Shown here piece by piece: positions 2,909 to 20,348 of a stretch of 24,208 nucleotides of DNA (the first letter of the stretch is position 1; each line of letters starts with the position of its first letter). The DNA comes from a virus. Lineage: Duplodnaviria; Heunggongvirae; Uroviricota; Caudoviricetes. A model generated the notes under the pieces. It was given only the letters and a program-made list of their open reading frames with translations, had not been told where the DNA came from and made no database searches. Made by a program: the position numbers and the translations under genes. Where the stretch lies: IMG/VR virus record IMGVR_UViG_2529292882_000005, positions 1-24,208 of that record; one strand, 5' to 3'.

Positions 2909-2922
2909 TAACCAGGTGTGTT

Positions 2923-3576: not shown

Positions 3577-3587
3577 CAGGCATTACA

Positions 3588-3978: not shown

Positions 3979-4200
3979 GTTTTACGGGTCCTTTCCAGAA
4001 TCTGAAACACCGAGGGTCATAGCACGCGCAAAAACGCGCTATTTATGAAAATTTTTCAGGAAAAAGCATGTCGGTACTTCTCGCGCATAACTATTTGTTT
4101 TTTCTGACATCACATCAGTAAAAGGTCCGACATGAAAACACCCGAAAAAGGGCATTTTAAGCGTTTTCATGTCGGACCCTGTATTTGATAGAGAAATGTA
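3979..4200 (+). other. cos packaging site (cosQ-like, cosN region, cosB with three R-type repeats and an AT-rich IHF-like spacer)
   Basis: ttttacgggtcctttcc (3979-3995) and cgctatttatgaaaattttt (4037-4056) closely match the sequences flanking lambda cosN as I remember them. Three copies of CATGTCGGNNC at 4068-4078 (+), 4124-4134 (inverted) and 4168-4178 (+). Lies directly upstream of the Nu1-like gene. Confidence 0.7.
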
Positions 4201-4202
4201 TT

Positions 4203-4751: not shown

Positions 4752-6639
4752 TGCAGCCGGTGCGATAGCTACAGGGCTTTTATCTCTCAATATTCCGGTT
4801 CCACTGACGACGGTTCAGTGGGCTGATCAACATTATTATCTGCCGAAAGAATCTTCATACACTCCCGGACAATGGGAAACCCTGCCGTTTCAGGTTGCCA
4901 TTATGAACAGCATGGGAAATGACCGGATCCGCACCGTTAATCTGATTAAATCGGCGCGCGTTGGTTACACCAAAATGCTGTTGGGGGTGGAGGCTTATTT
5001 TATTGAGCATAAATCCCGTAACAGTCTGCTTTTTCAGCCAACAGATTCTGCGGCAGAAGATTTCATGAAATCTCATGTTGAGCCAACGATCAGGGATGTC
5101 CCTGCATTGCTGGAGCTGGCTCCATGGTTCGGAAGAAAGCACCGCGATAATACACTCACCCTGAAGCGTTTTTCCTCCGGTGTGGGGTTCTGGTGCCTGG
5201 GCGGTGCCGCAGCTAAAAACTACCGTGAAAAATCTGTGGATGTGGTCTGCTATGACGAACTCTCCTCGTTTGAACCGGATGTGGAAAAAGAAGGCTCGCC
5301 GACGCTGCTTGGCGATAAACGTATCGAAGGCTCGGTATGGCCTAAATCCATACGTGGCTCAACGCCGAAAATTAAAGGCTCCTGTCAGATTGAGAAAGCC
5401 GCGAATGAATCTGCGCATTTCATGCGGTTTTATGTCCCTTGCCCTCATTGCGGGGAGGCCCAGTATCTGAAGTTTGGCGATGATGCGACGCCGTCTGGCC
5501 TGAAATGGGAGAAGGGTAAACCGGAAACGGTGTATTACCTGTGTGAACATAATGGCTGTGTGATCCGGCAGTCGGAACTTGACCAGACCGACGGACGCTG
5601 GATTTGTGACAATACCGGGATGTGGACGCGCGACGGCCTGGCATTTTACAGCGCCGGTGATGAGGAGATACCGCCACCGCGCTCAATCACGTACCACGTG
5701 TGGACAGCGTACAGTCCGTTCACCACCTGGGTGCAGATTGTCTACGACTGGCTGGATGCGCTGAAGGATCCGAACGGCGTCAAGACGTTTATTAACACCA
5801 CGCTCGGGGAGCCCTATGAAGAGGCTGTGGCAGAAAAGCTGAGTTTTGAGTTGTTACTGGAAAAGGTCTGCCACTATGGTGCGCAGGTTCCCCTGCGGGT
5901 GGTTTACCTGACCGCAGGGATCGACTCCCAGAAAGATCGCTATGAAATTTATGTCTGGGGCTGGGCTCCCGGCGAAGAAGCCTTTCTGATTGATAAGCAA
6001 ATTATCATGGGGCGACCGGAAGACGAGGACACCCTTAAACGTGTTGATACGGTGATCCGGAAAAAATATCGTCATGCTGACGGTACTGAAATTTCCATTT
6101 CCCGTGTCTGCTGGGATACCGGTGGTATCGACCAGGACATTGTGTATCAGCGTTCAAGGAAACACGGCACTTTTTTTGTGCTTCCCATAAAAGGGGCATC
6201 GGTGTACGGCAAGCCGGTGATCACCATGCCCAAAAAGCGCAACCAGCGTGGTGTGTTTTTGTGTGAGGTGGGCTCAGATACCGTCAAGGAAATGCTGTAC
6301 GCCCGTTTTGCCCTGCCAGTGGTCTCTGCCAGTGAAGCCGCCCCGTACACCTTCCGTTTTCCGGATAACCCCGACATTTTTTCGGAAGAAGAGGCGCGTC
6401 AGATCGTGGCGGAAGAGCTGGTGGAGAAGGTGGTTAATGGCAGGGTGAAACTGCTGTGGGATAAAAAAGGACGACGCAACGAAGCCCTCGACTGCCTGGT
6501 ATATGCCTATGCTGCCCTGCGTATTTCAGTTCAGCGGTGGCAGCTGGATCTTGAAGCACTGGCCCGTGCCAGAAGAGATGAGCAGGACGACGATGAGATG
6601 AGTCTGGAAGAAATCGCGGCTGCACTGAGTGGAGGATAA
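4723..6639 (+). CDS. A: terminase large subunit (lambda gpA-like)
   Basis: 638 aa. [58 protein letters not shown] and [33 protein letters not shown] are near-identical to lambda gpA segments. Start overlaps the Nu1 3' end as in lambda. Confidence 0.95.
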
Positions 6640-6642
6640 AGA

Positions 6643-6852
6643 ATGGTTTATACGCATGAAATGCTTTGTGATGCCCGTCGGGCATTACATGAACTGATGA
6701 TCGGACGTGCTGTGGTTTCCGTCAGCAAGGACGGGCGTCAGGTTCAGTATTCGCGGGCGACGATTGGTGAACTGCGTCAGTATATTGAAGAGCTGGAAAG
6801 TGCGCTGGGTGTATCCGGACGGCGTCGCGGCCCGGCAGGAGTGGGGCTGTGA
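6643..6852 (+). CDS. W: head-tail joining protein (lambda gpW-like)
   Basis: 69 aa. ARRALHELMIGRAVVSVSKDGRQVQYSRATIGELRQYIEELE...RRRGPAG resembles lambda gpW. ggagga SD upstream. Confidence 0.9.
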   Translation: MVYTHEMLCDARRALHELMIGRAVVSVSKDGRQVQYSRATIGELRQYIEELESALGVSGRRRGPAGVGL

Positions 6853-8420
6853 ACGGGGAACTGGTGGATCTTCACGGGCAGCCACTGCGGCAGAGTATGG
6901 GGTATTCCGGAGGGGGTACCGGATTTGGCGGGCAGCTTGCGGAATGGCTGCCTGCACCGGAAAGTGCCGACGTGGCGCTCTTACCTTCCATTCAGCTGGG
7001 TAACGCCCGTGCGGATGATCTGGTCCGCAATAACGGTATTGCCGCAAACGCCGTTGAAATTCATAAAGACCATATCGTCGGACACATGTTTCGTCTGAGT
7101 TACCGGCCCAACTGGCGCTGGCTGGGGATGTCGGAAGCCGATTCACATGTCTTTATTGAAGATGTTGAGGCAGCGTGGATGGAATTCTGCGATCCGGTGT
7201 TTGGTTCGATGGATGTGGAGGGGCGTCGCTCGTTTACCGAATTTATTCGTGAAGGGGTGGGCGTTCATACATTTAACGGTGAAATTTTTGTCCAGCCCGT
7301 ATGGGATACGGAATCCACGTCATTATTCCGGACGAAATTCAAGACCATCAGCCCGAAACGTGTCAGTACACCCGGTTATGGTACCGGCGATCGTTTTATG
7401 CGTGCCGGGGTGGAAATCAACCGGTACGGAAAAGCACTGGCCTACCATGTTCAGGAAGATGACTGGCCCGGTTACGGTGTCAGCAACTGGACGCGGATTG
7501 CGGCGACGCTGCCCTCCGGGCGACCGGGAATGATCCATGTGTTTCAGCCGCAGGAGGACGGGCAGACGCGCGGGGCCAACCAGTTTTATTCTGTCATGGA
7601 GCGTCTCAAGATGCTCGACACACTGCAGGCCACGCAACTGCAGTCGGCGGTGGTGCGGGCGATGTATGCCGCGACGATTGAATCCACGCTGGATTCGGAA
7701 AAAGCATTTGAATATATCGCCGGGGTGGGAGATGGCGGTAAAAATCCCCTGAACACCATCATGAAAGGCTACGCGCGTTATTACGCCACCAATACGGTAA
7801 AGCTGGGTGGGGTCCGTATTCCGCATCTTTATCCGGGGGATTCACTGAATCTGCAGACAGCGCAGAATGCAGATAATGGTTTCTCTGAACTGGAAAAGGC
7901 GCTGTTACGTTACATCGCTGCCGGACTGGGGGTGTCCTATGAACAGCTTTCCCGTGATTATTCACAGGTCAGTTATTCCAGTGCCAGGGCATCCGCCAAT
8001 GAGTCGTGGCGGTATTTTATGGGCAAACGAAAATTTGTGGCCAGTCGACTGGCATCACAGATGTTTGCCTGCTGGCTGGAGGAAGCCCTTATTCGCGGTG
8101 TGATCCGCCCGCCGAAATCCCGTTTTTCATTCTGGGAGGCCCGTTCCGGATGGTGTCGTGCCGAGTGGATTGGTGCCGGTCGCATGGCGATTGATGGCCT
8201 TAAGGAAGTGCAGGAAGCGGTGATGCGTATTGAAGGTGGTTTAAGCACGTACGAGAAAGAGCTGGCCCTGATGGGCGATGACTATCAGGAGATTTTCCGT
8301 CAGCAACTGCGTGAAAGCCAGGAGCGACAGGCAGCGGGTCTTCCCCGCCCCATCTGGATAAAGGACACGTTTCAGCAGCAGATCCGACAGACAACGGGAG
8401 AAAAAGGCGATGCGTCGTAA
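6849..8420 (+). CDS. B: portal protein (lambda gpB-like)
   Basis: GTG start overlapping the W stop (GTGA). Long conserved runs versus lambda gpB (ADDLVRNNGIAANA, GQTRGANQFYSVMERLKMLDTLQ, LNLQTAQNADNGFSELEKALLRYIAAGLGVSYEQLSR). Confidence 0.95.
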   Translation: MNGELVDLHGQPLRQSMGYSGGGTGFGGQLAEWLPAPESADVALLPSIQLGNARADDLVRNNGIAANAVEIHKDHIVGHMFRLSYRPNWRWLGMSEADSHVFIEDVEAAWMEFCDPVFGSMDVEGRRSFTEFIREGVGVHTFNGEIFVQPVWDTESTSLFRTKFKTISPKRVSTPGYGTGDRFMRAGVEINRYGKALAYHVQEDDWPGYGVSNWTRIAATLPSGRPGMIHVFQPQEDGQTRGANQFYSVMERLKMLDTLQATQLQSAVVRAMYAATIESTLDSEKAFEYIAGVGDGGKNPLNTIMKGYARYYATNTVKLGGVRIPHLYPGDSLNLQTAQNADNGFSELEKALLRYIAAGLGVSYEQLSRDYSQVSYSSARASANESWRYFMGKRKFVASRLASQMFACWLEEALIRGVIRPPKSRFSFWEARSGWCRAEWIGAGRMAIDGLKEVQEAVMRIEGGLSTYEKELALMGDDYQEIFRQQLRESQERQAAGLPRPIWIKDTFQQQIRQTTGEKGDAS

Positions 8421-10026
8421 TTTATCGCATATTGCCGCCATGGCATTTAATGAGCCGCTTTTACTGGAACCCGCCTATGCGCGGGTTTTCTTTTGCGCGC
8501 TGGGTAAAGAGATAGGGGCCGGCAGCCTTGCCGTTCCTCAGCAGGCTGTTCAGCTTGATGCTGATGGTATGCAACTGGCGGTGACTGACTATATGGCGGG
8601 CGGTCAGCGTCCGGCAAAGAGTTACCAGGTGAAGAATGGCATTGCCATTCTGCCGGTGAGCGGCACGCTGGTGCATAAACTGGGTACCCTGCGGCCTTAC
8701 TCCGGCATGACAGGCTATGACGGTCTGACTGCTCGTCTTCAGATGGCGGTGAATGATCCGGATGTGCGCGGCATTTTGCTGGATATCGACAGCCCGGGCG
8801 GTCAGGCTGCCGGGGCGTTTGACTGTGCTGACATGATTTACCGTCTGCGGGAACAGAAGCCCGTGTGGGCGCTGTGTAATGACATGGCCTGTTCAGCCGC
8901 CATGTTGCTGGCGGCAGCCTGTACCCGTCGGCTGGTCACGCAGACGGCAAAAATTGGTTCGATTGGCGTGATGATGGCGCACACCAGTTATGAGAAACAA
9001 CTGGCACAGGAAGGGGTGGACATCACGCTGATTTACTCCGGGCAGCACAAGGTTGACGGCAACAGTATTCAGGCATTGCCGGCAGGTGTGCGTGCAGATT
9101 TTCAGCGCCGTATTGATGAGGCCCGCCGGATGTTTGTCGACAAGGTGGCGCTTTATACGGGGCTGAGTTCAGAGGCAGTGATGAATACCGAGGCTGCCGT
9201 TTATGACGGTCAGGCAGGCATTGATGCAGGCCTGGCTGATCAACTGATTAATGCTGCAGATGCCGTTGAAGTGATGGTTTCTGCACTGAATGACTCTGTT
9301 ACGAAGGAGAATGCAATGACTGTTAAAAATCTCACCGTTGCTGAAGCGGTGGCCCAGGAAAATCAGCGCGTGATGGGGATCCTGAATTGTCAGGAGGCGA
9401 AAGGGCGCGAGCAACTGGCGCAAATGCTGGCAGGTCAACCTGGAATGACGGTTGAGCAGGCGAAAACGTTGCTGGCTGCTGCGCCGGTTGCCGGTACTGA
9501 CAGCACGGGTGATCAGATTATGGCGCTGCCGGAAGCAAAGGGGCGTGAACAACTGGCACAGATGCTGGCAGGTCAACCGGGGATGACGGTGGCGCAGGCG
9601 AAAGCGTTTCTGGCGGCAGCCCCTGCTGCCGGTGCTGCAGGCGCAGGCGATCAGATTATGGCGTTACCGGAAGCAAAAGGGCGTGAACAACTCGCGCAGG
9701 CGCTGGCTGAACAGCCGGGAATGACCGTTGACCAGGCCAAAACGTTACTGGCGGCGGCACCGGTTGCGGGCTCTGCAAGTGTCGGCGATCAGATTATGGC
9801 GCTGCCGGAGGCGAAAGGGCGCGAACAACTTGCACAGGCACTGACAGAACAGCCAGGAATGACGGTGGCGCAGGCGAAAACGCTGCTGGCAGCCGCGCCG
9901 GCGGCATCGCAACCGTCACAGGAAACACTTTTTGATCGCTTTATGGCACAGCATGCTGCCAGTGCGGTTTCCGGTGGCGGAACTGCCGGGCGCGGGGAGG
10001 AAGACCTGCTGATGAGTATGCCGTAA
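8410..10026 (+). CDS. C: prohead protease / scaffold fusion (lambda gpC-like, S49 ClpP-type), 538 aa, with expanded C-terminal repeat region
   Basis: N-terminal two thirds align with lambda gpC (IAAMAFNEPLLLEPAYARVFFCAL, YSGMTGYDGL, VWALCNDMACSAAMLLAAACTRRLVTQTAKIGSIGVMMAH). The C-terminus carries four tandem 46-aa units related to the lambda Nu3 region. Confidence 0.9.
   Translation: MRRNLSHIAAMAFNEPLLLEPAYARVFFCALGKEIGAGSLAVPQQAVQLDADGMQLAVTDYMAGGQRPAKSYQVKNGIAILPVSGTLVHKLGTLRPYSGMTGYDGLTARLQMAVNDPDVRGILLDIDSPGGQAAGAFDCADMIYRLREQKPVWALCNDMACSAAMLLAAACTRRLVTQTAKIGSIGVMMAHTSYEKQLAQEGVDITLIYSGQHKVDGNSIQALPAGVRADFQRRIDEARRMFVDKVALYTGLSSEAVMNTEAAVYDGQAGIDAGLADQLINAADAVEVMVSALNDSVTKENAMTVKNLTVAEAVAQENQRVMGILNCQEAKGREQLAQMLAGQPGMTVEQAKTLLAAAPVAGTDSTGDQIMALPEAKGREQLAQMLAGQPGMTVAQAKAFLAAAPAAGAAGAGDQIMALPEAKGREQLAQALAEQPGMTVDQAKTLLAAAPVAGSASVGDQIMALPEAKGREQLAQALTEQPGMTVAQAKTLLAAAPAASQPSQETLFDRFMAQHAASAVSGGGTAGRGEEDLLMSMP
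9316..10026 (+). CDS. nu3: putative scaffolding protein (lambda Nu3-like) from an in-frame internal start within gene C
   Basis: In-frame ATG at 9316 preceded by AAGGAGA (9304-9310). The product MTVKNLTVAEAVAQENQRVMGILNCQEAKGRE... parallels lambda Nu3, which is nested in-frame in the 3' part of C. Confidence 0.55.
   Translation: MTVKNLTVAEAVAQENQRVMGILNCQEAKGREQLAQMLAGQPGMTVEQAKTLLAAAPVAGTDSTGDQIMALPEAKGREQLAQMLAGQPGMTVAQAKAFLAAAPAAGAAGAGDQIMALPEAKGREQLAQALAEQPGMTVDQAKTLLAAAPVAGSASVGDQIMALPEAKGREQLAQALTEQPGMTVAQAKTLLAAAPAASQPSQETLFDRFMAQHAASAVSGGGTAGRGEEDLLMSMP
9394..9945 (+). repeat. tandem direct repeat, period 138 nt (46 codons), 4 copies (last one partial/divergent), inside the scaffold-coding part of gene C
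   Basis: Unit starts at 9394, 9532, 9670 and 9808. Each encodes EAKGREQLAQ(M/A)LA(G/E)QPGMTV(E/A/D)QAK(T/A)LLAAAP...GDQIMALP. Copies differ by scattered, mostly silent or conservative changes. Confidence 0.85.
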
Positions 10027-10064: not shown

Positions 10065-10400
10065 ATGATTAAAACCACCACGGAAAAGCGCGCGGATGTG
10101 CACATTTTTGCCGGAAACGATCCGGCGCATACCGCAAAAGCCACCAGTGGTATCAGTGCCGCCATGCCTGCACTGACGCCACTGATGCTGGATGACGCCA
10201 CCGGTAAACTGGTGGCATGGGATGGTCAGAAAGCCGGAACGGCAGTGGGCGTGCTGGCTCTGGCGCTTACCGGGACCGAGTCCATGCTGACGTACTACAA
10301 AAGCGGTACATTTGCCACTGAGTCGCTGGTCTGGCCTGATTCTGTGGATGCGGTGAAAAAAGCCAACGCATTTGTGGGAAGTGCCATCAGCCACGCCTGA
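10065..10400 (+). CDS. D: head decoration protein (lambda gpD-like)
   Basis: 111 aa. NDPAHTAKATSGISAAMPALTPLMLDDATGKLVAWDG...YYKSGTF matches lambda gpD. caggagg SD upstream. Confidence 0.9.
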   Translation: MIKTTTEKRADVHIFAGNDPAHTAKATSGISAAMPALTPLMLDDATGKLVAWDGQKAGTAVGVLALALTGTESMLTYYKSGTFATESLVWPDSVDAVKKANAFVGSAISHA

Positions 10401-10420
10401 TGGTGAAGTGATTGACTGAA

Positions 10421-10455
10421 AAAACGGGTCGCGATGCGGCCCGTTTGTGTTTCTG
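10421..10455 (+). terminator. putative intrinsic terminator or attenuating hairpin between D and E
   Basis: aacgggtcgc-gat-gcggcccgtt stem (one G-U wobble) followed by tgtgtttct (interrupted T tract). Confidence 0.45.
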
Positions 10456-10469
10456 AAGGAAAATAAATT

Positions 10470-11498
10470 ATGGGGTTATTTACCACGCGTCAGTTACTCG
10501 GGTACACCGAGCAGAAAGTGAAATTTCGTGCGCTGTTTCTGGAGCTGTTCTTTCGTCGCACGATCACTTTCCATACTCAGGAAGTCATGCTGGATAAAAT
10601 TACCGGCAAAACACCGGTTGCGGCGTATGTGTCTCCGGTGGTGTCAGGCAAAGTGCTGCGCAGCCGTGGTGGTGAAACCCGCGTGTTACGTCCCGGTTAT
10701 GTAAAACCAAAACACCGCTTTGATTATCAGCAGGCAGTGGAACGTCTTCCGGGGGAAGATCCGTCCCGTCTTAATGACCCGGCCTACCGCCGCCTGCGTA
10801 TTCTGACGGACAACCTGAAACAGGAAGAGCAGGCGATTGTGCAGGTGGAAGAAATGCAGGCGGTCAGTGCCGTTCTGCAGGGTAAATACACCATGAGCGG
10901 CGAGCAGTTTGAGACAGTGGAAGTGGATTTTGGGCGTTCTGCCGCCAATAACATTACGCAGGCTGGCGGACGCGAATGGTCAAAGCAGAATGCTGACACC
11001 TTTGATCCGACGCATGATCTGGATGCGTACTGCGATTTTGCTTCCGGCACCATCAATATCGCGATTATGGACGGCACGGTCTGGCGTATGCTGAACGGTT
11101 TTAAACTGTTCCGTGAAAAACTGGATACCCGCCGTGGCTCCAAATCTGAGCTGGAAACGGCACTGAAAGACCTGGGTTCCGTGGTTTCCTTTAAGGGCTG
11201 GTACGGCGATCTGGCTGTCGTGGTGGCGAAGACAACGTATGTTGACGAAAACGGGGATGAACAGCGTTATCTGCCGGAAGGTACACTGATTCTGGGAAAC
11301 ACTCAGGCGGAGGGCGTCCGTTGCTATGGCGCAATCCAGGATAATCAGGCGCTGAGTGAAGGGATCACCTCTGCGATTCGTTATCCGAAACACTGGGAGG
11401 AAGTGGGGGATCCTGGTTGCGAATATACCATGACGCAGTCTGCGCCGTTGATGGTGCTGCCGGATCCGGATGCGTTTGTGGTGGTTCAGGTGAAATAA
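10470..11498 (+). CDS. E: major capsid protein (lambda gpE-like)
   Basis: 342 aa. YVSPVVSGKVLRSRGG, PGYVKPKH, EEMQAVSAVLQGKYTMSGEQFE, LDTRRGSKSELETALKDLG and TMTQSAPLMVLPDPDAFVVVQV match lambda gpE. Confidence 0.95.
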   Translation: MGLFTTRQLLGYTEQKVKFRALFLELFFRRTITFHTQEVMLDKITGKTPVAAYVSPVVSGKVLRSRGGETRVLRPGYVKPKHRFDYQQAVERLPGEDPSRLNDPAYRRLRILTDNLKQEEQAIVQVEEMQAVSAVLQGKYTMSGEQFETVEVDFGRSAANNITQAGGREWSKQNADTFDPTHDLDAYCDFASGTINIAIMDGTVWRMLNGFKLFREKLDTRRGSKSELETALKDLGSVVSFKGWYGDLAVVVAKTTYVDENGDEQRYLPEGTLILGNTQAEGVRCYGAIQDNQALSEGITSAIRYPKHWEEVGDPGCEYTMTQSAPLMVLPDPDAFVVVQVK

Positions 11499-11501
11499 GA
11501 C

Positions 11502-11530
11502 GGGGCGGGATATACCCGCCTTTTTCTTTA
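11502..11530 (+). terminator. rho-independent terminator after the major capsid gene
   Basis: ggcggg-atata-cccgcc hairpin followed by tttttcttta. Confidence 0.7.
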
Positions 11531-11548
11531 TCGCACGGGAGAGATGTG

Positions 11549-11914
11549 ATGACAAAAGAGCAGATGACGGAACGCCTTCAGGCGCTGGCAGTGATTCTGG
11601 GGCGTGAAGCAGATATTTCAGGTTCAAAAGCCGATCTTGAGCAGCGTCTGGCGGAATGGGAGGAGGAGGCCGCTGGATTCGATGGGGAGGAGACGGGGAA
11701 GGAAGAGGTGGGCAACGATGCATCCGGCGACGGAATGCATTCTGAGCAGGGACTCGCCCGGGTGCGTATGCTGAAAACGGCGCATATGCCAGCCTGTGAT
11801 GCTGTGACGGGAAAAATGTTGATGTTTGCCCGGGCCTTCAGTGTTGTGCTGGTTAATGAAGCCACAGTTCCCGCGTTGCTGGCAGACGGTCTGGCAGAAA
11901 AAATCCGGGAGTGA
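11549..11914 (+). CDS. FI: DNA packaging protein (lambda gpFI-like)
   Basis: ATG at 11549 with gggagag SD. MTKEQMTERLQAL...SKADLEQRLAEWEEE parallels the lambda FI N-terminus (MTKDELIARLRSL...TKEELALRVAELKEE). The track ORF 11417..11914 has an unsupported upstream start. Confidence 0.8.
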   Translation: MTKEQMTERLQALAVILGREADISGSKADLEQRLAEWEEEAAGFDGEETGKEEVGNDASGDGMHSEQGLARVRMLKTAHMPACDAVTGKMLMFARAFSVVLVNEATVPALLADGLAEKIRE

Positions 11915-12318
11915 TGATGTTCAATAATCTGTTCGATCAGGCCATGAGTGATGCGGATGACATCATCCTGGATACGATGGGGACGGAAATCAGCATATAT
12001 CCGGGCGGCACGGAAAGAAAAATCCGTGCCGTTTTTGATGCCCCGGCAGATAACACCGGGATTAACACTGGCAGCGGCGAAATTCGTGATACTGCGCCCG
12101 TGTTATTTACCCGGAGCGCATGGGCCGCCGGTCTGAAAAAATATGACAGGGTCATGATCCACGGCGAACCCTATCAGGTAGTCGATCCCGGCTGGGATGA
12201 GTCAGGCACTGCGGGTCAGGGGGTGATTACCATCACCCTTGCGCGTGGAGAGCCGGGGAGAAATACACCTGCTGCCCCTGTCCGACCGAGTAAACGTTAT
12301 GGCAGTCAGAGAGCATGA
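11914..12318 (+). CDS. FII: head-tail connector / head completion protein (lambda gpFII-like)
   Basis: ATG at 11914 overlapping the FI stop (TGATG). FNNLFDQAMSDADDIILDTMGTEISI...RAVFDAP...GSGEIRDTAPVLFTRS parallels lambda FII. Confidence 0.85.
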   Translation: MMFNNLFDQAMSDADDIILDTMGTEISIYPGGTERKIRAVFDAPADNTGINTGSGEIRDTAPVLFTRSAWAAGLKKYDRVMIHGEPYQVVDPGWDESGTAGQGVITITLARGEPGRNTPAAPVRPSKRYGSQRA

Positions 12319-13021
12319 ACGAAGCAGTGCCCGGCAGCGACGGCTGGCACGAAACCTCGTCGTCGATATTGATGAAGATGAGGTGCTGAAAATTATCGCT
12401 AAACTGGGTGGGTCAAAAAGTCAGATCCGTAAAGCCTGGGGCGTGGCGCTGAAAAGAGCCGCGTCTGCACTGCGGATGAAGGCTATGGTAGAGTTTAAAA
12501 AACAGGTTGCCCCACGCAGTCAGAAAATGATCAAAAAGCGTGTTCTGCATAATTTTATCATTCGTCGTAACGGTGATGAGTTTGATGAGGCGAAGGTATG
12601 GTTCGGTCTGAACGCCATCAAAGTACGCGATCTGCGCGGACGCATCAGTGGGGGACGATGCGGCGAACGCCATCAGTTGCGCGATGAGCGGGGGCGTTTT
12701 GCACCAGCTTCTCACCGCAGGAAGGCACGGGAGATCCGTTTTAAACCTGCCGGGGAATCCCTGCCTGTCAGCACCTGGTCAACGGATGATGCCTTTATCA
12801 ACCAGTTCGAAGCGGAAAATCGTAACGGACGTATATCAAAAAGGAAAACGATACTGATCCGACAGACATCCGGACGACGGAGGGTGCGTGAAGCGGAAAT
12901 TGATATTTATGAAGCCATGCTGAACCGTATAGAGGATTTTGTTTTTCCGGATGCGGAAGTACTGATCCTGAAAAATTTTGAGCATGAACTGAAATTCCGG
13001 GTATTTAAGGGGCTGGAGTGA
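12299..13021 (+). CDS. hypothetical basic protein (about 240 aa), putative tail completion protein at the head-tail module junction (tentatively lambda gpZ-like)
   Basis: Uninterrupted frame. ATG at 12299 overlaps the FII 3' end. Arg/Lys-rich. Occupies the position of Z in lambda gene order (FII-Z-U). Family assignment is tentative (composition and position only); the start codon is uncertain. Confidence 0.5.
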   Translation: MAVREHERSSARQRRLARNLVVDIDEDEVLKIIAKLGGSKSQIRKAWGVALKRAASALRMKAMVEFKKQVAPRSQKMIKKRVLHNFIIRRNGDEFDEAKVWFGLNAIKVRDLRGRISGGRCGERHQLRDERGRFAPASHRRKAREIRFKPAGESLPVSTWSTDDAFINQFEAENRNGRISKRKTILIRQTSGRRRVREAEIDIYEAMLNRIEDFVFPDAEVLILKNFEHELKFRVFKGLE

Positions 13022-13584
13022 TGGAGCCATTGATGATGGGCGCCTGGCATCAGGCGGTGATTGACAGTCTGAAACAAATTCCCTGGGTGGAAGATGCCGA
13101 TGAGTACCCGGAAAAAGTGACGCAACTGGTGACGCCTGCTGTGTTTGTGGATGTACCGGGCTGGGACAAGGCTCATTTTGCCGACGGGCAAACGCGGGTC
13201 ACGCTGAAATGTGATCTGTTTGTGGTGACAGACCGGGCCGGGAAGACGGAAAACGTGCCAAAACCGCAGATTTTTGCCCGTTGTCTCGCGATGGATTTAT
13301 CTGACTGGATTGAGGGAGCCACGTTCGGGCTGGATAACGTTGATCCGGCGGTTTTTATCGATGCTGAGGTGGATACCTTCGACCGGCTGCTGGACGACTA
13401 CATCGTTTTCCGTGTCTCTTTTGAACAGGACATTCCGGTCGGCGAAGATCCGTTTGCGGTTCCGGCAGGTGCGCCGTTACAGGAAGTCTGGCTGGGTAAA
13501 GTACCGGAAACCGGCAAGAGACATGAGCAGGATTATCGTCTTATCTGGAAATCGGAGGGCACCGGTGATGAGTCTGGCGGATGA
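13021..13584 (+). CDS. hypothetical protein (about 187 aa), putative tail terminator / tail completion protein
   Basis: ATG at 13021 overlapping the upstream stop (TGATG); the track start is GTG at 13018. Acidic protein lying between the lambda-type head-completion genes and baseplate gene V. Function inferred from position only. Confidence 0.5.
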   Translation: MEPLMMGAWHQAVIDSLKQIPWVEDADEYPEKVTQLVTPAVFVDVPGWDKAHFADGQTRVTLKCDLFVVTDRAGKTENVPKPQIFARCLAMDLSDWIEGATFGLDNVDPAVFIDAEVDTFDRLLDDYIVFRVSFEQDIPVGEDPFAVPAGAPLQEVWLGKVPETGKRHEQDYRLIWKSEGTGDESGG

Positions 13585-14191
13585 AGTGGCAGAGTTACGC
13601 CGCAGGGTGGCGGACATGGTCCGTCGCGGCGTGGTGGACGAGGTGATCCCGGGTAGCCCGGTGATGGTTCGGGTGGATATCGGGGATGTGCTTTCGCCTC
13701 CGTTGCCCTGGATTCAGGTACAGTCCGGGCGCTACATGCAGGTCAGTAATTATCCGTCCCCCGGAGATGCCGTTACAGTGATATCGGAGGCGGGCGATCT
13801 GCGTAACGGTCGGGTGTATCCGGGGCCCAATATTGACGCCATTCCTGTCCCTGAGGGCAGTGAATACGAACATGTTATTTTGTTTGATACCGGAACGGAA
13901 ATCCGTTACGACCGTCAGGCTAATGTCCTGTCCATCACGCTGGCTGAAGGCGGCAGCTATAAAATTACAGGCAGGGGAACCCTGGACGGTCCGGTAGAAA
14001 TCACAGATACCCTGACCGTACAGGGTAAAGCAACCATGAATGCTGAGGCGGTGGTTAAGGCGGATCTGATGGTCGGTGGTGAGGTTTCTGATTATCACGG
14101 AACGATGAGTCAAATCAGAATTGTCTATAACGGTCACAATCACCGGGGCGACAGTGGTGGCAGCACCGGACAGCCTGGTCAGCAAATGTAA
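13568..14191 (+). CDS. baseplate assembly / spike protein (P2 gpV-like)
   Basis: ATG at 13568 (MSLADEVAELRRRVADMVRRG...). The C-terminal HNHRGDSGGSTGQP resembles the P2 gpV C-terminus (HKHPGDSGGTTGSP). The track ORF 13274..14191 has a spurious upstream extension. Confidence 0.85.
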   Translation: MSLADEVAELRRRVADMVRRGVVDEVIPGSPVMVRVDIGDVLSPPLPWIQVQSGRYMQVSNYPSPGDAVTVISEAGDLRNGRVYPGPNIDAIPVPEGSEYEHVILFDTGTEIRYDRQANVLSITLAEGGSYKITGRGTLDGPVEITDTLTVQGKATMNAEAVVKADLMVGGEVSDYHGTMSQIRIVYNGHNHRGDSGGSTGQPGQQM

Positions 14192-14224
14192 TCCCCTTTC
14201 AGTTCTTTTTCCGGAATAAACAAC

Positions 14225-14581
14225 ATGATTGGTATTGATTCAGCCACCGGCAGATATCTGCACGGTAACGAACATCTGCGCCAGTCCGTCACTGATATTT
14301 TGTCAACACCGGTCGGCAGCCGGGTCCTGCTCAGGGAATACGGCAGCAGACTTTTCAGTCTGCTTGATAACCCACAGGATGATTTCACGCGGGTGAGAAT
14401 TGTCCGTGAAACGGTAACCGCCCTTGAACGCTGGGAACCCCGTCTGACTCTCCGGCGGGTGGAAGTGACGTGGACAGGAGAAGGAAGTGCGTGGCTGACG
14501 CTTGTCGGGGTGAATAACGAAACTCAGGACACGATTCGACTCGAGGAGATAAAAATTGGCAACGTCTCAGGCAATTATTGA
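14225..14581 (+). CDS. baseplate protein (P2 gpW / gp25-like)
   Basis: 118 aa. ILSTPVGSRVLLREYGSRLFSLLDNPQD...ALERWEPRLTLRRVEV matches the GPW/gp25 family. Confidence 0.85.
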   Translation: MIGIDSATGRYLHGNEHLRQSVTDILSTPVGSRVLLREYGSRLFSLLDNPQDDFTRVRIVRETVTALERWEPRLTLRRVEVTWTGEGSAWLTLVGVNNETQDTIRLEEIKIGNVSGNY

Positions 14582-15470
14582 TCTGTCCGCGATACCAGTA
14601 CCGGATGCGGTGGAGGTGCCGGACACCGCTGTGCTGGTCACTCAGATAGTGGCGAAGTATCAGGAGCTGGATACGTTGTTTTCGGCTCTGGTGGAATCTG
14701 ATCCCGCGTATAAATGGGCAGAGGCGCTGGCTTATCGGGTGGCGCTGATGCGCCAGCAGATAAATGATGCTGTCCGTGCTGTACTGCTTGCCAGTGCCGG
14801 TGGGAACGATCTGGATCAGGTTGGCGCGAATTATCAGGTTCAGCGGCTGGTTATTACCCCGGCAGACGACAGCACCATTCCGCCCACGCCGGCGGTGTAT
14901 GAAGATGATGACGCTTTTCGCGAACGTATCCAGTTGTCATGGGCACGGCTCAGCACCGCCGGCGCGAAAAATGCGTATCACTATTTTGCACAAAGTGCTG
15001 ATCCTGATGTGCTGGATGTGAAGGCTTACGGACCGGAAACACATTCGCAGGAAGGCCGGGTTTTTCTTTATGTGTTATCCCGCTCCGGAAATGGCACTGC
15101 ATCACAACCCCTGCTGGATAAGGTGGCAGCATCAGTCTGTGATGATGAAACCCGTCCCCTGACGGATTTTGTCAGTGTCCGGACGGCAGAAATTATTCCC
15201 TACGATGTGGTGGCGGATATTCATATTCCCTACGGACTGGATGGTGAACTGGTTATGGCAAATGCCCGCAAGGCGCTGCAGTCATACACTGACAGCGTCC
15301 ACCGGATTGGCTCGGTGGCATCCCGTTCTGGCATGGATGGTGCCCTTCACCAGACCGGGGTGATTACGGTGAATCTGACCTCTCCGGGCAGTGATATCGT
15401 TCCTGCGATGGGGCAGGCACCGTGGTGCCGTAAGATAACGCTGAATAAGGTGGAGACAACTGATGAATGA
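14556..15470 (+). CDS. baseplate protein (P2 gpJ-like)
   Basis: AIIDLSAIPVPDAVEV..., AVRAVLLASAGGNDLDQVGANYQVQRLVITPADDSTIPPTPAV closely match P2 gpJ. Non-ATG start (TTG at 14556) overlapping the gpW-like 3' end; exact start uncertain. Confidence 0.85.
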   Translation: MATSQAIIDLSAIPVPDAVEVPDTAVLVTQIVAKYQELDTLFSALVESDPAYKWAEALAYRVALMRQQINDAVRAVLLASAGGNDLDQVGANYQVQRLVITPADDSTIPPTPAVYEDDDAFRERIQLSWARLSTAGAKNAYHYFAQSADPDVLDVKAYGPETHSQEGRVFLYVLSRSGNGTASQPLLDKVAASVCDDETRPLTDFVSVRTAEIIPYDVVADIHIPYGLDGELVMANARKALQSYTDSVHRIGSVASRSGMDGALHQTGVITVNLTSPGSDIVPAMGQAPWCRKITLNKVETTDE

Positions 15471-16053
15471 CGATATCAGGAGCATACTGCCGGTCAGTGC
15501 CAGTCTGGCAGAGCGGGTGGTGGACTGTGTCGCCGGAGATATGCTGTCAGACATAGCGGTCTGCCTGATCCGCTATGTGAAAAATCCCGATTTATGTCCT
15601 GCTGAATTGCTGCCATGGCTGGCCTGGGAAATGGCGGTGGATACCTGGAATGAACACTGGACGGAGACGGAAAAAAGGTCTGCGATAAAACGTGCTGCTT
15701 ACATCCACCGCCACAGAGGGACTAAAGCGGCGCTGATGGCATCGCTGGCTGACAGTCCCTTCCGATCGCAGATTGTTGAGTGGTATGAGCAGACCCCACC
15801 CGGGGAGCCGTATACCTTCCGTCTGAACGTGGAGCAGAAGGATTTACCGGTGCTGATGAATGATCATCAGGATCTGAAGCATGCGGTGCTCCGTGCCAAA
15901 AATCTGCGCAGCTGGTTCAGTATTCACGTTTACGGGAACAGCACAGGGCGTGGATTTGGTTACGGCTATGTGATGGCGACAGAAAAAATCAGAAGTACCG
16001 GTGTGACAACAAAGACAGTGCCCACAGGCGGGCAGAGTGAGGCAGGTGTATGA
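15463..16053 (+). CDS. baseplate / tail fibre attachment protein (P2 gpI-like)
   Basis: 196 aa. ATG overlaps the J stop. LPWLAWEMAVDTWNEHWTETEKRSAIKRAAYIHRHRGTKAAL is typical of P2 gpI. Confidence 0.85.
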   Translation: MNDDIRSILPVSASLAERVVDCVAGDMLSDIAVCLIRYVKNPDLCPAELLPWLAWEMAVDTWNEHWTETEKRSAIKRAAYIHRHRGTKAALMASLADSPFRSQIVEWYEQTPPGEPYTFRLNVEQKDLPVLMNDHQDLKHAVLRAKNLRSWFSIHVYGNSTGRGFGYGYVMATEKIRSTGVTTKTVPTGGQSEAGV

Positions 16054-17279
16054 ATGGACTGATTCTGACAACGTCCGGCGCTGCAGAAATTGAAGCAGCA
16101 TATCAGAACGGGCAAACCGTGACCGTCCGGCATGTTCTGCTTGGTGACGGGGGCGGGCGGGCATTGCCATCCACGCCGGATGAAATGGCAGCAATGACAT
16201 CGTTGTACGGCGAATTCGGGCAGGAACCCTTTTCCGACGGTGCGGTGGAGGAGGGCTTCATCAGCGGGGATATTGTGATTGACTGTAAATCATACCCCGG
16301 TAAAACCCTTCGAGAACTGGGGATGATCAGCGACAGAGGTACGCTTATCGCGTACGGACGTTATCCGGACACCTTTTTACCAGACCAGACGGACTCCGTT
16401 ATCAAGGAAGTTATTCTGACGCTGGTTCTTGGGCTGACGCACGCACAAAACGTGGTGCTGGAAGTTGATCCGGACAGGGCCATTATTACTCAGGAAATCG
16501 GAGACAGACGCTATCTGCAACGAAAAAAGAATCTTTCGGATGTGGAAGACAAGGATGAGGCTGTTGAAAACCTCGGATTAAAACCCACGGTGGACAAGGC
16601 AAAAAATGCCGTTCAGCGTGATGGCGACACCATGACAGGAAAGCTGACGCTGCCCCAGACCTCCGGATTTGGTGTTAACACTGACAATACCCTGGGAGGT
16701 AACTCAATTGCTTTCGGGGATAACGATACAGGTATAAAACAAAACGGCGACGGCATTCTGGATGTTTATGCGAATGGACAGCATGTATTTCGTTTCCAGA
16801 ATGGTGTGGCGATAGCGTTAAAAAATATTCAGGCCGGAAATGCTAAAAAATTCACGTTATCCAGCGCCAACAACTCCACGAAAAACGCAACGTTTAATTT
16901 ATGGGGTAATTCATCCCGACCTGTAGTTGCAGAGCTTGGTGATGATTCCGGCTGGCATTTTTACAGCCAGAGAAATACCGATGGCAGTATCACATTCGCT
17001 GTAAACGGACAGATGACCCCATCAAACTATGGAAATTTCGATGCCCGTTATCAGCAGCGAAATGGCGGCGTGCAGGATGTGCGTTATGGTTCCGAAATGT
17101 ATTACAACCCGGGAGGTAACCAGGTATCCTGGACATTTCGCTCACCTTCAGGCCACGGGTTATCCGGTATTAATGTGCAGGAAACCGGAAGTAATTCGGC
17201 AGATAACATCGGCGGCGTGTATTACCGTCCGCTTCAGAAACTGATCAACGGCACCTGGTATAACGTGGCGAGTGTTTAA
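16050..17279 (+). CDS. tail fibre protein (P2 gpH-like; conserved N-terminal baseplate-binding part and C-terminal receptor-binding part)
   Basis: 409 aa. C-terminal GGNSIAFGDNDTGIKQNGDGILDVYANGQHVFRFQNGVAIALKNIQAG...VVAELGDDSGWHFYSQRNTDGSITFAVNGQMTPSNYGNFD...INGTWYNVASV matches the P2 gpH C-terminus. Shorter than P2 H (about 670 aa). Confidence 0.85.
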   Translation: MNGLILTTSGAAEIEAAYQNGQTVTVRHVLLGDGGGRALPSTPDEMAAMTSLYGEFGQEPFSDGAVEEGFISGDIVIDCKSYPGKTLRELGMISDRGTLIAYGRYPDTFLPDQTDSVIKEVILTLVLGLTHAQNVVLEVDPDRAIITQEIGDRRYLQRKKNLSDVEDKDEAVENLGLKPTVDKAKNAVQRDGDTMTGKLTLPQTSGFGVNTDNTLGGNSIAFGDNDTGIKQNGDGILDVYANGQHVFRFQNGVAIALKNIQAGNAKKFTLSSANNSTKNATFNLWGNSSRPVVAELGDDSGWHFYSQRNTDGSITFAVNGQMTPSNYGNFDARYQQRNGGVQDVRYGSEMYYNPGGNQVSWTFRSPSGHGLSGINVQETGSNSADNIGGVYYRPLQKLINGTWYNVASV

Positions 17280-17281: not shown

Positions 17282-17824
17282 ATGTTGCATTTAAAAAATA
17301 TTACTGCGGGCAATCCAAAAACCGCAGAACAATATCAGATGACAAAAAAATATGATGTTACCTGGCTTTTTTCGGAAGACGACAAAAACTGGTATGAAGA
17401 ACTGAAGAATTTCGCCAGCGACACAATAAAAATAGCTTACACCGGAGACGGGCGCGTGGTGTGGGTCGGTAAGGATGTGACAGGTATTGAACCCCGTAAC
17501 GCCAGTGTTATTGAAGTTCCTGATATTACCGCTAACCGCCGCATTACCGCACCGGGTTACTGGTTCTACCGCAATGATGAATTTGTTTTTGACTACAAAC
17601 TTAAAGCGGAAGATGAGCGTGATGCACTGTTAAAACAGGTCAGCATCATGACCAGCGAATGGGGAAAAGACCTGCTGCTGGGATTAATCAGTGACGAAGA
17701 CAGGGAGAAACTGAAAGCGTACCGCATTTACGCGAAATCGCTGCAGGCGATGGATTTCAGCGCTATTACGGATAAGACCACTTACAACAATATTAGCTGG
17801 CCTGAGCAGCCACAAAATACCTGA
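17282..17824 (+). CDS. tail fibre assembly protein (P2 gpG-like)
   Basis: MLHLKNITAGNPKTAEQYQMTKKYDVTWLFSEDDKNWYEELKNF...TIKI...VIEVPDIT parallels P2 gpG. Confidence 0.85.
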   Translation: MLHLKNITAGNPKTAEQYQMTKKYDVTWLFSEDDKNWYEELKNFASDTIKIAYTGDGRVVWVGKDVTGIEPRNASVIEVPDITANRRITAPGYWFYRNDEFVFDYKLKAEDERDALLKQVSIMTSEWGKDLLLGLISDEDREKLKAYRIYAKSLQAMDFSAITDKTTYNNISWPEQPQNT

Positions 17825-17878: not shown

Positions 17879-19354
17879 ATGTCCGGATTACATGGTGTTG
17901 AAACCATTGAACTGACGACAGGCACGGTTGCCGTGCAGACCATCTCCACGGCAGTGATTGGCCTGGTGGGGACAGCGCCGGACGCCTCTGGTGGTGTATG
18001 CGCTTCCGGCACAGCCGGCTCCTGGCTGCTGGGAACGGCGCTGGATTTCACGGCGAAACAGGAAGGTCGGGCCGGTAATAAGATTTCGGTTGTTGCTGTG
18101 GCTGCCACAGAACAAAACGCGCAGACAGTGGCCTCGCTGAAAGGTACGACCCTGACGATAACACTGGGGACGGACGAACACAGCCAGGTTAACGCCAAGG
18201 CGGACCGTGTGACTGAAGTGGTGAATGCGCTGGGGGATTCGCCTGTGACGGCGGCTGTCAGCACCCTGAATGCAGGAAGTGCTGAAAATAATGTGGTGTT
18301 GCCGTTCAGCCTGACGTTATCCGGCGGAGAAGATGAGGCGTTCCCGGTCAATACACCAGTGGTGGTGGCAGGGGCCATTACTCAGGCAGGGAAACTGGGC
18401 ACAGCCGGAACATTATACCCGGCCCTGCGAGATATTTTTGACCAGACTGGTGCGCTGGTGATTGTGGTGCGCGCAGAAAGTAAAACAAAGGCGAAAGAGG
18501 CTGAACAGCGTGTGGCGGTGATTCAGGCCATGGAGGCGCTGACAGAAAGTAAGGGCGTGACAGGCTATCAACCGCGCATCCTCATTGCCACGGGGTACAG
18601 TGAGGATGATGGCGTGGCAAAGGCGCTGGAAACGTATGCCGCGAAGCTGCGGGCTGTGGCCTATATTGACTCGCCCTCAATGGCAACGCCGCAGGATGTG
18701 GTCCAGCGGCGCGCGTCATTTGGTGGGCGTGTGGAGCTGCTGCGTCCGCGCGTGTCAGTGACGGATGACAGCGGGCAAACGATATTTCGTCCATATTCGG
18801 CTCGTGCTGCCGGGCTGCGTGCCCGTATTGATTACGAAAAAGGGTGGTGGTGGTCCAAATCAAACCAGGACGTGATGAATATCACCGGTCTGGAGCAGGT
18901 GGATACGTTTATTCTCGGGGAGCAGAACTGCACGGCAAACCTGCTGAACATGGAAAATATCTCCACCATTATTCGCCATGACGGTTTTAAACACTGGGGT
19001 AACCGTCTGTGCACATCCCACAGTCAGTGGCGTTTTGAGCCGGTACGCCGCACTGCAGATGTGATTGAGGACAGCATCCAGGAGGCCATGCTGCCTTATG
19101 TCGATCGTCCGCTTGATCGGGATGTGGCAGACGACATTCTTGGCAGCATTAATGCCTATATGCGTCAGCTTAAAAATCTGGGCGCGATCCACGGTGGCAG
19201 TGCATGGCTGAACGATGAACTGAACACTGCAGAAACCCTGGCGGCAGGGCAGTTGTATATCGATTATGACTTTGGGCCGAAGTCACCACTGGAGCGCCTG
19301 ACACTGCGGGCAATGATTAACAATAAACTGGCGCTGGAGGAACTGACGGTATGA
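17879..19354 (+). CDS. contractile tail sheath protein (P2 gpFI-like), 491 aa, with an extra N-proximal segment
   Basis: N-terminus (HGVETIELTTGTVAVQTISTAVIGLVGTA) and C-terminal two thirds (RILIATGY, LRAVAYID, GLRARIDYEKGWW, IRHDGFKHWGNR, GQLYIDYDF...LERLTLR) match P2 sheath. About 100 residues between them have no counterpart in my memory of P2 FI. Confidence 0.9.
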   Translation: MSGLHGVETIELTTGTVAVQTISTAVIGLVGTAPDASGGVCASGTAGSWLLGTALDFTAKQEGRAGNKISVVAVAATEQNAQTVASLKGTTLTITLGTDEHSQVNAKADRVTEVVNALGDSPVTAAVSTLNAGSAENNVVLPFSLTLSGGEDEAFPVNTPVVVAGAITQAGKLGTAGTLYPALRDIFDQTGALVIVVRAESKTKAKEAEQRVAVIQAMEALTESKGVTGYQPRILIATGYSEDDGVAKALETYAAKLRAVAYIDSPSMATPQDVVQRRASFGGRVELLRPRVSVTDDSGQTIFRPYSARAAGLRARIDYEKGWWWSKSNQDVMNITGLEQVDTFILGEQNCTANLLNMENISTIIRHDGFKHWGNRLCTSHSQWRFEPVRRTADVIEDSIQEAMLPYVDRPLDRDVADDILGSINAYMRQLKNLGAIHGGSAWLNDELNTAETLAAGQLYIDYDFGPKSPLERLTLRAMINNKLALEELTV

Positions 19355-19869
19355 TGACGGGTGAAAAAAAACTGTTGCGCGCATGGGCGTTATTTCTTCC
19401 TGGCGGGATCCGCCTTCAGGGGGCACATGAATACACGCCACCTGCCATTAATATCACGACAGTGGATATCAAAACCGGCGCAATGGATGCACCGGTGGCA
19501 GTGGATGACGGCATGGCAGCGCTGACCTGTTCGTTTAAGATTTATGGTTATGATGTTGCCATGCTTACGCTGCTGGGATTACAGGCCGGGCTTTATTCGC
19601 CGGAGATCGTTGTCCGCCAGGCTTACCAGGTGGGGAATGCGACCAGCGGACAGGTGGAAACCCTGCAGGGGATGATCACCAGTATCACGCCGGATGCACG
19701 TCCCGCAACGTCACAGGCAGAGGCTTCGGTGACGGTGGAAATGTCACTGAGTTATTACCGTCAGGCTGTTGACGGTGTGGAAACCATCTGCATTATTCCG
19801 GAGGAATTTGTGCGCCGTATTAACGGCGTTAATGTTCTGGCGGATCTGAAAAAAATCATCCGGGTTTAA
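19351..19869 (+). CDS. tail tube protein (P2 gpFII-like)
   Basis: 172 aa. ATG overlaps the sheath stop (ATGA). Follows the sheath gene as in P2. C-terminal INGVNVLADLKK resembles the P2 tube C-terminus. Confidence 0.85.
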   Translation: MMTGEKKLLRAWALFLPGGIRLQGAHEYTPPAINITTVDIKTGAMDAPVAVDDGMAALTCSFKIYGYDVAMLTLLGLQAGLYSPEIVVRQAYQVGNATSGQVETLQGMITSITPDARPATSQAEASVTVEMSLSYYRQAVDGVETICIIPEEFVRRINGVNVLADLKKIIRV

Positions 19870-19917: not shown

Positions 19918-19928
19918 AGGAGATGCTT

Positions 19929-20231
19929 ATGTCGGAAAAAAACAGTGTTCCTGCCAGCAGCGTGGAAATTGTGTTATCCGTGCCGTATGTCACCGCATCA
20001 GGACAGACGATCACGCACGTCACTATGCGTGCGCCCACTGTCCGCGATCGTCTGTTGCATCGCCGGAGTAACAAACCGGAAGCAGAGGCTGATCTGGATA
20101 TGATTGCCGGTCTGTGTGGGATGGACGCGGCAGACATGATGAACATGGAAGCGTGTGATTACCTGGCCCTGGAGCGTCAGTTTAATGTTTTTTTGCTGCC
20201 GCCGGTCCGGCGGAAGAAGAAAGCATCCTGA
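19929..20231 (+). CDS. tail assembly chaperone (P2 gpE-like)
   Basis: ATG at 19929 with aaaggag SD (the track start 19923 is too close to the SD). About 100 aa. Contains a slippery run near its 3' end. Confidence 0.75.
   Translation: MSEKNSVPASSVEIVLSVPYVTASGQTITHVTMRAPTVRDRLLHRRSNKPEAEADLDMIAGLCGMDAADMMNMEACDYLALERQFNVFLLPPVRRKKKAS
20189..20195 (+). other. -1 programmed ribosomal frameshift slippery heptamer T_TTT_TTG (E to E-prime)
   Basis: ttttttt g at 20188-20195 in the E frame (GTT TTT TTG). The -1 frame is open from 20195 to a TAA at 20366-20368 and encodes AAGPAEEESILTAIRRAGAWFGWSPGDVMALPYTDFVAMMLAESEERKRCYGNGGR. Same arrangement as the P2 E/E-prime frameshift. Confidence 0.65.
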
Positions 20232-20348
20232 CAGCGATACGGCGTGCCGGTGCCTGGTTCGGGTGGTCTCCCGGAGATGTGATGGCGCTGCCGTATACGG
20301 ATTTTGTGGCAATGATGCTGGCGGAGTCGGAAGAGAGGAAGCGATGTT

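Follow-up and report, generated by a model that had tools for sequence, protein, structure and literature searches.

A probable lambda-order neck, with a gpZ-family tail completion protein and a collar-type tail terminator, between phage 21-like head genes and contractile tail genes of an E. coli prophage

Introduction

In 80alpha/SaPI1, a single copy of the tail completion protein is found within the neck, where it sits on the N-termini of the tape measure and touches the DNA end (PMC11661146). In the 80alpha protein, a long N-terminal helix is followed by a hairpin-bearing loop and a C-terminal helix, and the same work describes further tail completion proteins, including the extra apical beta domain of lambda gpZ (PMC11661146). 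In the diffocin, the collar's N-terminal domain binds the last tube ring and its C-terminal strand enters the 'handshake' of the sheath, and the collar ring stops polymerisation and passes contraction on to the tube (PMC11329794). P2 gpR acts similarly and also contacts the head adaptor; in P2, gpL is the sole adaptor and there is no FII-type protein (bioRxiv 10.64898/2026.09.14.750843). In the R pyocin, the collar gene PA0615 opens the structural cassette PA0615-PA0628 (PMC11871291). The expected order of neck genes is Hc1, Ne1, terminator and tail (PMC11784142). Here we report an analysis of two open reading frames (ORFs), ORF-A and ORF-B, which lie between the head genes and the tail genes of a Caudoviricetes virus (IMG/VR record IMGVR_UViG_2529292882_000005, positions 1 to 24,208; this whole stretch of 24,208 nt is referred to as the window).

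The proteins closest to ORF-B are the R2 pyocin collar PA0615 (PDB 6u5f), lambda gpU, the Mu terminator (9khy), T5 p142 and the diffocin collar CD1362, and those closest to ORF-A are the lambda gpZ family (PF06763, phrog_27), with its equivalents HK97 gp10, SPP1 gp16.1 and 80alpha gp51. Like the window, Wolbachia phage WO, Vibrio phage Valp1, Enterobacter phage Arya, Hafnia phage yong2 and Citrobacter phage Chris1 combine a lambda-family head (terminase, gpW and lambda-type portal) with a P2/pyocin-type tail, and they share with it a block made up of Hc1, tail completion protein (TCP), phrog_1072 protein and V, followed by baseplate and sheath genes. Phage WO has a 'minor tail protein Z', then an ORF-B homologue and then baseplate genes. 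Head and tail of phage Valp1 are both collinear with those of the window, with 32-48% amino acid (aa) identity. Phage Arya, classified in Jilinvirus (Iiscvirinae) by the International Committee on Taxonomy of Viruses, has the same block and a fused protease-capsid gene; Jilinvirus members are small myoviruses of 41-44 kb (bioRxiv 10.1101/2024.09.12.612763). The layout of a lambda head with a P2 tail is thus not new, being found also in WO, Arya and Valp1. No paper on a 'lambda-like head' combined with a 'P2-like tail' was found in a search of the literature.

Results and Discussion

The neck of the window

The structural genes of the window form one continuous late operon on the + strand. According to Pfam, its upstream block (Nu1, A, W, B, C, D, E, FI and FII) is a lambda-family head and its downstream block (V, W, J, I, H, G, sheath, tube, E, T, U, X and D) is a contractile tail, and ORF-A and ORF-B are found between the two. 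We consider it quite probable that the two ORFs belong to an ordinary neck of long-tailed phages in lambda order, in which FII is followed by a gpZ homologue and by a functional equivalent of gpU, that both are genes of the tail module, and that the boundary between the modules is in FI. Since ORF-A falls in the gpZ family and ORF-B has the characters of a terminator, the neck would consist of W, FII, a Z-like protein and a U-like protein, with a contractile-tail terminator in the slot of gpU. All four parts of a type 1 neck (scheme cited in PMC11784142) were present, namely Ad1 (gpW), Hc1 (phrog_82), Ne1 (phrog_27) and, by fold, Tc1 (ORF-B), the last three following one another in this sequence. 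The gene order is lambda-like, and so are three of the four parts (W, FII and Z); the contractile-tail terminator replaces gpU. Homology, fold, synteny and co-inheritance carry this assignment, and they are given in turn below.

ORF-B, a collar-type tail terminator

The acidic ORF-B protein (187 aa; isoelectric point, pI, 4.29) matched a single PHROG, phrog_1072, which is labelled 'unknown function' and also takes in the ORF-B homologues of phages Arya and Valp1; no terminator-labelled family model was matched. An alignment of ORF-B with eight homologues (A1) was used as its profile. Against PDB sequences, this profile found R2 pyocin 'Collar PA0615' (6u5f_A; E 5.9e-5), with query residues 89-171 aligned to 84-164 of the chain. 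This was the one relevant solved protein found by sequence, and the match includes a common C-terminal motif. In hhalign comparisons, the ORF-B family showed no relation to lambda gpU or to P2 gpR.

The AlphaFold2 model of ORF-B (mean predicted local distance difference test, pLDDT, 60.6) has an alpha/beta core at residues 1-140, mostly with values of 60-80, and a C-terminal arm at 142-187 with two short predicted strands. When compared with the alpha/beta tail terminator fold of gpU, gp17 and collar PA0615, the model was found to have this fold. As modelled, ORF-B appears to be a structural homologue of the lambda gpU, Mu and T5 terminators, with the R-pyocin collar as the closest of them. 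A Foldseek search of BFVD matched two viral proteins of 188 aa, which were plausible but had no name and could not be interpreted.

The position of the gene is similar to that of the pyocin collar: like PA0615 in its cassette, ORF-B is the first gene of the tail block, immediately 5' of V. V was also found directly after ORF-B in yong2, Chris1, Valp1, Arya, WO and 13 genome loci. We therefore regard ORF-B as very probably a tail terminator.

Two start codons can be considered for ORF-B. The start of its homologue in RefSeq is the ATG matching window position 13033, which gives a protein of 183 aa, and the N-terminus M-x-P-L read from the upstream ATG at 13021 is conserved in the ORF-B homologues of other genera. 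Position 13021 is the likelier start because its ATG overlaps the ORF-A stop codon (TGATG).

ORF-A, a divergent gpZ-type tail completion protein

ORF-A encodes a strongly basic protein of 240 aa (pI 10.78), with 55 lysine and arginine residues against 33 aspartate and glutamate residues. It matched phrog_27, 'tail completion or Neck1 protein', with E 4.7e-27 over residues 15-239 and profile positions 4-194 of 199, and lambda gpZ is found in the same PHROG (3.2e-69). Searched with the ORF-A profile, 1.84 billion representatives gave just 198 proteins at E<=0.001, of which many have a length of 175-200 aa and match in two stretches; because the match is split in this way, the shorter relatives are seen to be without the central segment. 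A match to Pfam Minor_tail_Z was found in just one of 20 close relatives (E 0.021), and in eight of the ten distant relatives sampled, four of which scored above the cut-off (27-34 bits vs 23.9). We then aligned bridging relatives of ORF-A with Z from both lambda and phage 21 (alignment A4), and hhalign of the ORF-A family (alignment A3) with this gpZ-containing alignment gave a probability of 100 and E 3e-40. The independent element in this link is the Pfam membership of the bridging sequences.

The AlphaFold2 model of ORF-A (pLDDT 72.3) has long N-terminal helices at 26-81, a beta-rich middle part at 114-198 and a C-terminal helix of 34 residues. Such a predicted layout may fit the published description of tail completion proteins. 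An arginine-rich central insertion adds about 30 residues, and one further insert is restricted to the relatives in E. coli and Salmonella. Alignment showed that a strongly basic central loop is common to ORF-A and gpZ. The gene lies between those of the head-closure protein and the terminator, in the order FII, ORF-A, ORF-B here and in all 13 related loci, which corresponds to FII, Z, U in lambda. Thus ORF-A and gpZ are alike in PHROG, in the slot from FII to the terminator and in the basic central loop, and perhaps in the predicted long terminal helices and beta apex; ORF-A differs in its length (192 aa in gpZ) and in serving a contractile tail. Taken together, ORF-A is probably a divergent gpZ-type tail completion protein.

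Several of our results weigh against these two assignments. Neither ORF-A nor ORF-B had a Pfam match at E<=1 or any NCBIfam match, and ORF-A did not reach the gathering score of Pfam Minor_tail_Z (PF06763). No similarity was found by hhalign between the ORF-A family and lambda gpZ alone, so the link of ORF-A to gpZ is a transitive one; the score between A3 and A4 is moreover partly circular, because the bridging sequences in A4 came from the ORF-A profile. The confidence of the ORF-B model is moderate, and its putative sheath-binding arm has a pLDDT below 50. As to location, no tail completion protein has been located so far in any myophage structure (PMC11784142), and for this reason the position of ORF-A in the particle is one that we infer by siphophage analogy. 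Searching PDB sequences with the ORF-A profile gave spurious matches only (designed repeat proteins and ribosomal protein eS17). The relations described above came from a PHROG profile, bridging homologues or structure.

The possibility that ORF-A is a non-structural protein, such as a small basic DNA-binding or regulatory protein within the late operon, was also considered. The scores counted in its favour were all at noise level. ORF-A overlaps both of its structural neighbours (FII by 20 nt, ORF-B by TGATG), which is consistent with coupled translation, and it is invariably found between FII and the terminator. Its homologue gpZ has been detected in lambda tail particles (PMC11784142), and a basic surface is expected of a protein that touches the DNA end (PMC11661146). 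A non-structural role is therefore extremely improbable.

In RefSeq, as annotated by PGAP, both ORFs are 'hypothetical protein'. The ORFs overlap their neighbours (FII/ORF-A as above; ORF-A/ORF-B by a common TGATG stop/start; ORF-B/V by 17 nt), and they are genuine genes rather than chance ORFs because the same neighbours are conserved in other genera. The preliminary description of the window gave their coordinates and opposite charges correctly. It also held them to be the least recognisable proteins of the structural cluster, and the annotation gap is real in Pfam, NCBIfam and RefSeq, but ORF-A could be assigned by means of phrog_27. Its view that both proteins act at the head-tail interface agrees with the families found here, tail completion protein and tail terminator, and neither protein gave a strong match to a family unrelated to head-tail joining.

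Comparison with P2

P2 gpR is a terminator (phrog_65) and gpS a TCP/Neck1 protein (phrog_26), and the functional classes of the two therefore match those of ORF-B and ORF-A. The P2 pair does the same job in the same slot, as the two genes right before V. The order is reversed, however: in P2 the terminator comes before the TCP, whereas in the window the TCP comes first, as in lambda. No sequence relation between the pairs was detected, since ORF-A and ORF-B fall in PHROGs different from those of gpS and gpR, do not match Pfam P2_Phage_GpR or Phage_tail_S, and gave hhalign probabilities below 1% with these proteins.

A different division of labour, as in T4 (gp3/gp15) or in the older view of P2 R and S, would have one protein end the tube and the other the sheath, so that ORF-A would be a second terminator and not a lumenal protein. 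Older genetics took P2 gpR for the tube terminator and gpS for the sheath terminator (summarised in PMC11784142), two genes fill the same slot right before V, and the ORF-A model has a beta-rich middle domain. This reading is in our view a remote one.

The gene content of the tail from V to D, which had been described as being in P2 order, was confirmed by Pfam, but the order is not strictly that of P2. In P2, X is beside L and R and S are before V, whereas the window has X between U and D, as have yong2 and Chris1.

The boundary between the head and tail modules

Our blastn comparison with phage 21 showed similarity at 4039-6563, at 6908-9592 (extended to 9819 by a weaker piece) and at 10071-11667. 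Since it ends at 11667, the phage 21-like block stops 118 nt into FI. Compared with their phage 21 counterparts, the proteins had aa identities of 93% (Nu1), 82% (A), 47% (W), 74% (portal), 60% (C), 74% (D), 82% (E) and 37% (FI), and FII had no match in phage 21. Judged by this comparison, the apparent recombination seam is in FI at about 11667, which is about 600 bases upstream of ORF-A. The head genes of the window are far closer to phage 21 (60-93% aa, all but W) than are the heads of WO, Valp1, Arya, yong2 and Chris1.

From ORF-A through the last tail gene, the proteins of the window have 40-64% aa identity to those of yong2 and Chris1, with the exceptions of the fibre, which was matched in Chris1 alone and over 46 aa, and the fibre chaperone, which had no match. 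The terminase and portal of these two phages are merely 23-24% identical to those of the window, and a fused protease-capsid gene replaces C, D and E. The order FII/ORF-A/ORF-B/V was kept in all 13 loci, which are of different Enterobacterales species; 11 of these have a fused protease-major capsid protein gene, and the other two (Serratia and Erwinia) have lambda C-D-E. This indicates that ORF-A and ORF-B, which are at the identity level of the tail genes and stand behind two head types, are genes of the tail module, and that the point of exchange is upstream of them. Megablast of 11500-14200 against the phage collection gave nothing, and phage relatives were found by protein-level searches only.

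It had been proposed that a mosaic junction lies at 11914-13584, with ORF-A and ORF-B as special adaptors that fit a lambda-type connector to a P2-type tail and mark the recombination joint. The pair does sit between recognisable head and tail genes, has no matches in Pfam or NCBIfam, and has no detectable relation to P2 gpR or gpS. However, both proteins fall in ubiquitous neck families, the same pair is found behind a non-lambda head in 11 of the 13 loci and in yong2 and Chris1, the closest solved relative of ORF-B comes from a headless tailocin, and the break in similarity to phage 21 is upstream of both genes. The special-adaptor reading is therefore largely refuted and very unlikely; the two appear instead as canonical head-proximal tail proteins, and the junction was misplaced. 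The head from Nu1 to FII was right in its lambda order, as Pfam showed, but not in its supposed lambda sequence, phage 21 being closer than lambda. The comparison of synteny with other phages of lambda-head/P2-tail type, which had been suggested, was borne out by the same block in WO, Valp1, Arya, yong2 and Chris1.

Besides the boundary in FI, a second divergent island of the window appears to be W. This gene is a gap in the phage 21-like block, with no nucleotide similarity over 6564-6907 and with TerL (82%) and the portal (74%) on either side of it. The closest phage W proteins listed are all about equally far from it (46-55%, tblastn). With each FII found (lambda, mEp237, yong2 and Chris1), in siphophages and myophages alike, the FII of the window had about 32-35% identity, and against NCBIfam tail_join_FII it scored 24.5 bits, marginally below the cut-off of 25. 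W may have co-diverged with FII. Co-segregation of W and FII with the tail lineage was tested and not demonstrated, both being about equally distant from every isolated phage.

A two-seam chimera was also considered, in which the prophage would have received its terminase, portal, protease, decoration and capsid genes recently from a phage 21-type source, while a discontiguous neck set, made up of W, the FI C-terminus, FII, the gpZ-like protein and the collar-type terminator, was kept with the contractile tail. We think this unlikely. If such a neck set reflected co-adaptation, W and FII would be the specificity determinants for docking a siphovirus-type head on a myovirus tail. The apex of ORF-A, enlarged and rich in arginine, could have been adapted to gripping a cos-type DNA end in a contractile tail.

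Proposed arrangement of the neck

Returning to the neck of lambda order, we infer the following stoichiometry, virion positions and contacts, including the docking of FII on ORF-B. ORF-B most likely forms a hexameric ring, in which its alpha/beta core would close off the last ring of the tube and its C-terminal arm would contribute a strand to the last ring of the sheath, as in the R2 pyocin and diffocin collars. The ring would thereby halt the growth of the tail and couple the sheath to the tube, so that contraction drives the tube, and it would offer a docking surface for the FII-closed head. The most likely place of the very basic ORF-A protein is within the tail top, where one or a few copies would lie between the N-termini of the tape measure and the DNA end. 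This placement is by analogy with the tail completion protein of the siphophage 80alpha, and the positive charge and basic central loop of ORF-A would agree with a role at the DNA end. The protein most likely to bridge both modules is FII, which would dock on the ORF-B ring and have W above it, towards the head.

Since the apparent junction proteins belong to the tail module, it is the head-side FII and W that should be studied for head-tail compatibility. With these assignments, names can be given to the two 'hypothetical' proteins of 82 complete E. coli genomes, tail completion protein and tail terminator, and the unlabelled phrog_1072 can be read as a collar-type terminator family. Homologues of ORF-B are found in Wolbachia phage WO as well. 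The E. coli myophage described here would be a tractable system in which to search contractile tails for their tail completion protein, which is still to be located. Nothing here overturns current understanding; ORF-A and ORF-B would be members of known families.

Other features of the window

The genes of the late operon are listed in Table 1.

Table 1. Head, neck and tail genes identified in the window.
Feature	Position	Strand	Evidence
Nu1	4185-4751	+	Pfam
A (terminase, TerL)	4723-6639	+	Pfam
W, gpW-type head-tail adaptor (Ad1)	6643-6852	+	Pfam gpW 4.1e-25
Lambda-type portal (B)	6849-8420	+	Pfam
S49 protease/scaffold (C)	8410-10026	+	Pfam
D	10065-10400	+	Pfam
E (capsid)	10470-11498	+	Pfam
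FI-type DNA packaging protein	11549-11914	+	Pfam Packaging_FI 7.3e-13
FII-type head-closure protein (Hc1)	11914-12318	+	Pfam Phage_attach 8.3e-13, over cut-off; phrog_82 Hc1 2.8e-29
ORF-A, probable gpZ-family tail completion protein (TCP/Neck1), 240 aa	12299-13021	+	phrog_27
ORF-B, very probable collar-type tail terminator (TrP), 187 aa	13021-13584	+	Fold and R2 pyocin collar profile match
V, gpV-type baseplate spike, first of baseplate block	13568-14191	+	phrog_9992 6.6e-23; weak Pfam Phage_base_V, Apex
W (tail)	14225-14581	+	Pfam GPW_gp25
J	14556-15470	+	Pfam Baseplate_J
I	15463-16053	+	Pfam Tail_P2_I
H, tail fibre	16050-17279	+	Pfam Phage_tail_fib
G, fibre chaperone	17282-17824	+	Pfam Caudo_TAP
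Sheath	17879-19354	+	Pfam Phage_sheath
Tube	19351-19869	+	Pfam Phage_tube
E (+E') tail chaperone	19923-20231	+	Pfam Phage_TAC_7
T, tape measure	20349-22001	+	Pfam
U	21998-22492	+	Pfam Phage_P2_GpU
X	22467-22685	+	Pfam Phage_tail_X
D (tail)	22676-23764	+	Pfam Phage_GPD

Gene E of the tail chaperone has a T-rich slippery run (TTTTTTTG, window 20187-20194) close to its end, and an ORF at 20155-20403 overlaps this gene in the -1 frame and extends towards the tape-measure gene. This is the layout expected of the programmed frameshift of P2-type E/E+E'. Inside the protease/scaffold gene C there is a tandem repeat (window 9393-9901) with 3.7 copies of a 138 bp unit and 79% matches, which codes for a 46-aa unit (…ALPEAKGREQLAQ.LA.QPGMTV.QAK.LLAAAP…) that occurs about four times in the C-terminal, scaffold-like half of the protein. 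The corresponding gene of phage 21 is shorter (1506 vs 1617 nt, 501 vs 538 aa).

In window 4039-4180, similarity to phage 21 begins at nucleotide 25 of that phage, just within its cos site; window 4119-4178 also gave an inverted match to phage 21 168-109, which corresponds to the annotated R sites of cosB. From these two matches, cosN is expected at about 4015-4038.

Relatives in E. coli genomes

Of 5426 complete E. coli genomes, 82 had prophages that matched the region 11500-14200, with identity of up to 99.1%, and the matches listed were in strains of Shiga toxin-producing E. coli (STEC) and enterotoxigenic E. coli (ETEC). The best-matching prophage, in E. coli STEC276, adjoins the trp operon and carries stx2e; tRNA genes and stx2e are found just upstream of its lysis genes (L001 8263-9498). 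As near-identical prophages carry stx2e, the window was considered as an Stx2e prophage, and this was dropped: window 1-1685 has no similarity to the tRNA/stx2e stretch of STEC276 and no tRNA genes, and has instead a TerB-like ORF at 1206-1631. This suggests that the prophage of the window may not be Stx-converting. Within the structural region, all but the distal portion of fibre gene H (16648-17224) aligned with the near-identical STEC276 prophage; of that portion, a piece of 113 bp alone did so, which suggests a swapped receptor-binding cassette.

The region with KilA-N, TerB, holin and endolysin genes (1056-3176) was matched at 91.7% nucleotide identity by PP818812.1, named Actinobacillus phage vB_Apl-pPE4, which is unexpectedly high for a phage with a Pasteurellaceae host. 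Phage phiP27 matched window 1686-3618, lysis genes included, at 94%.

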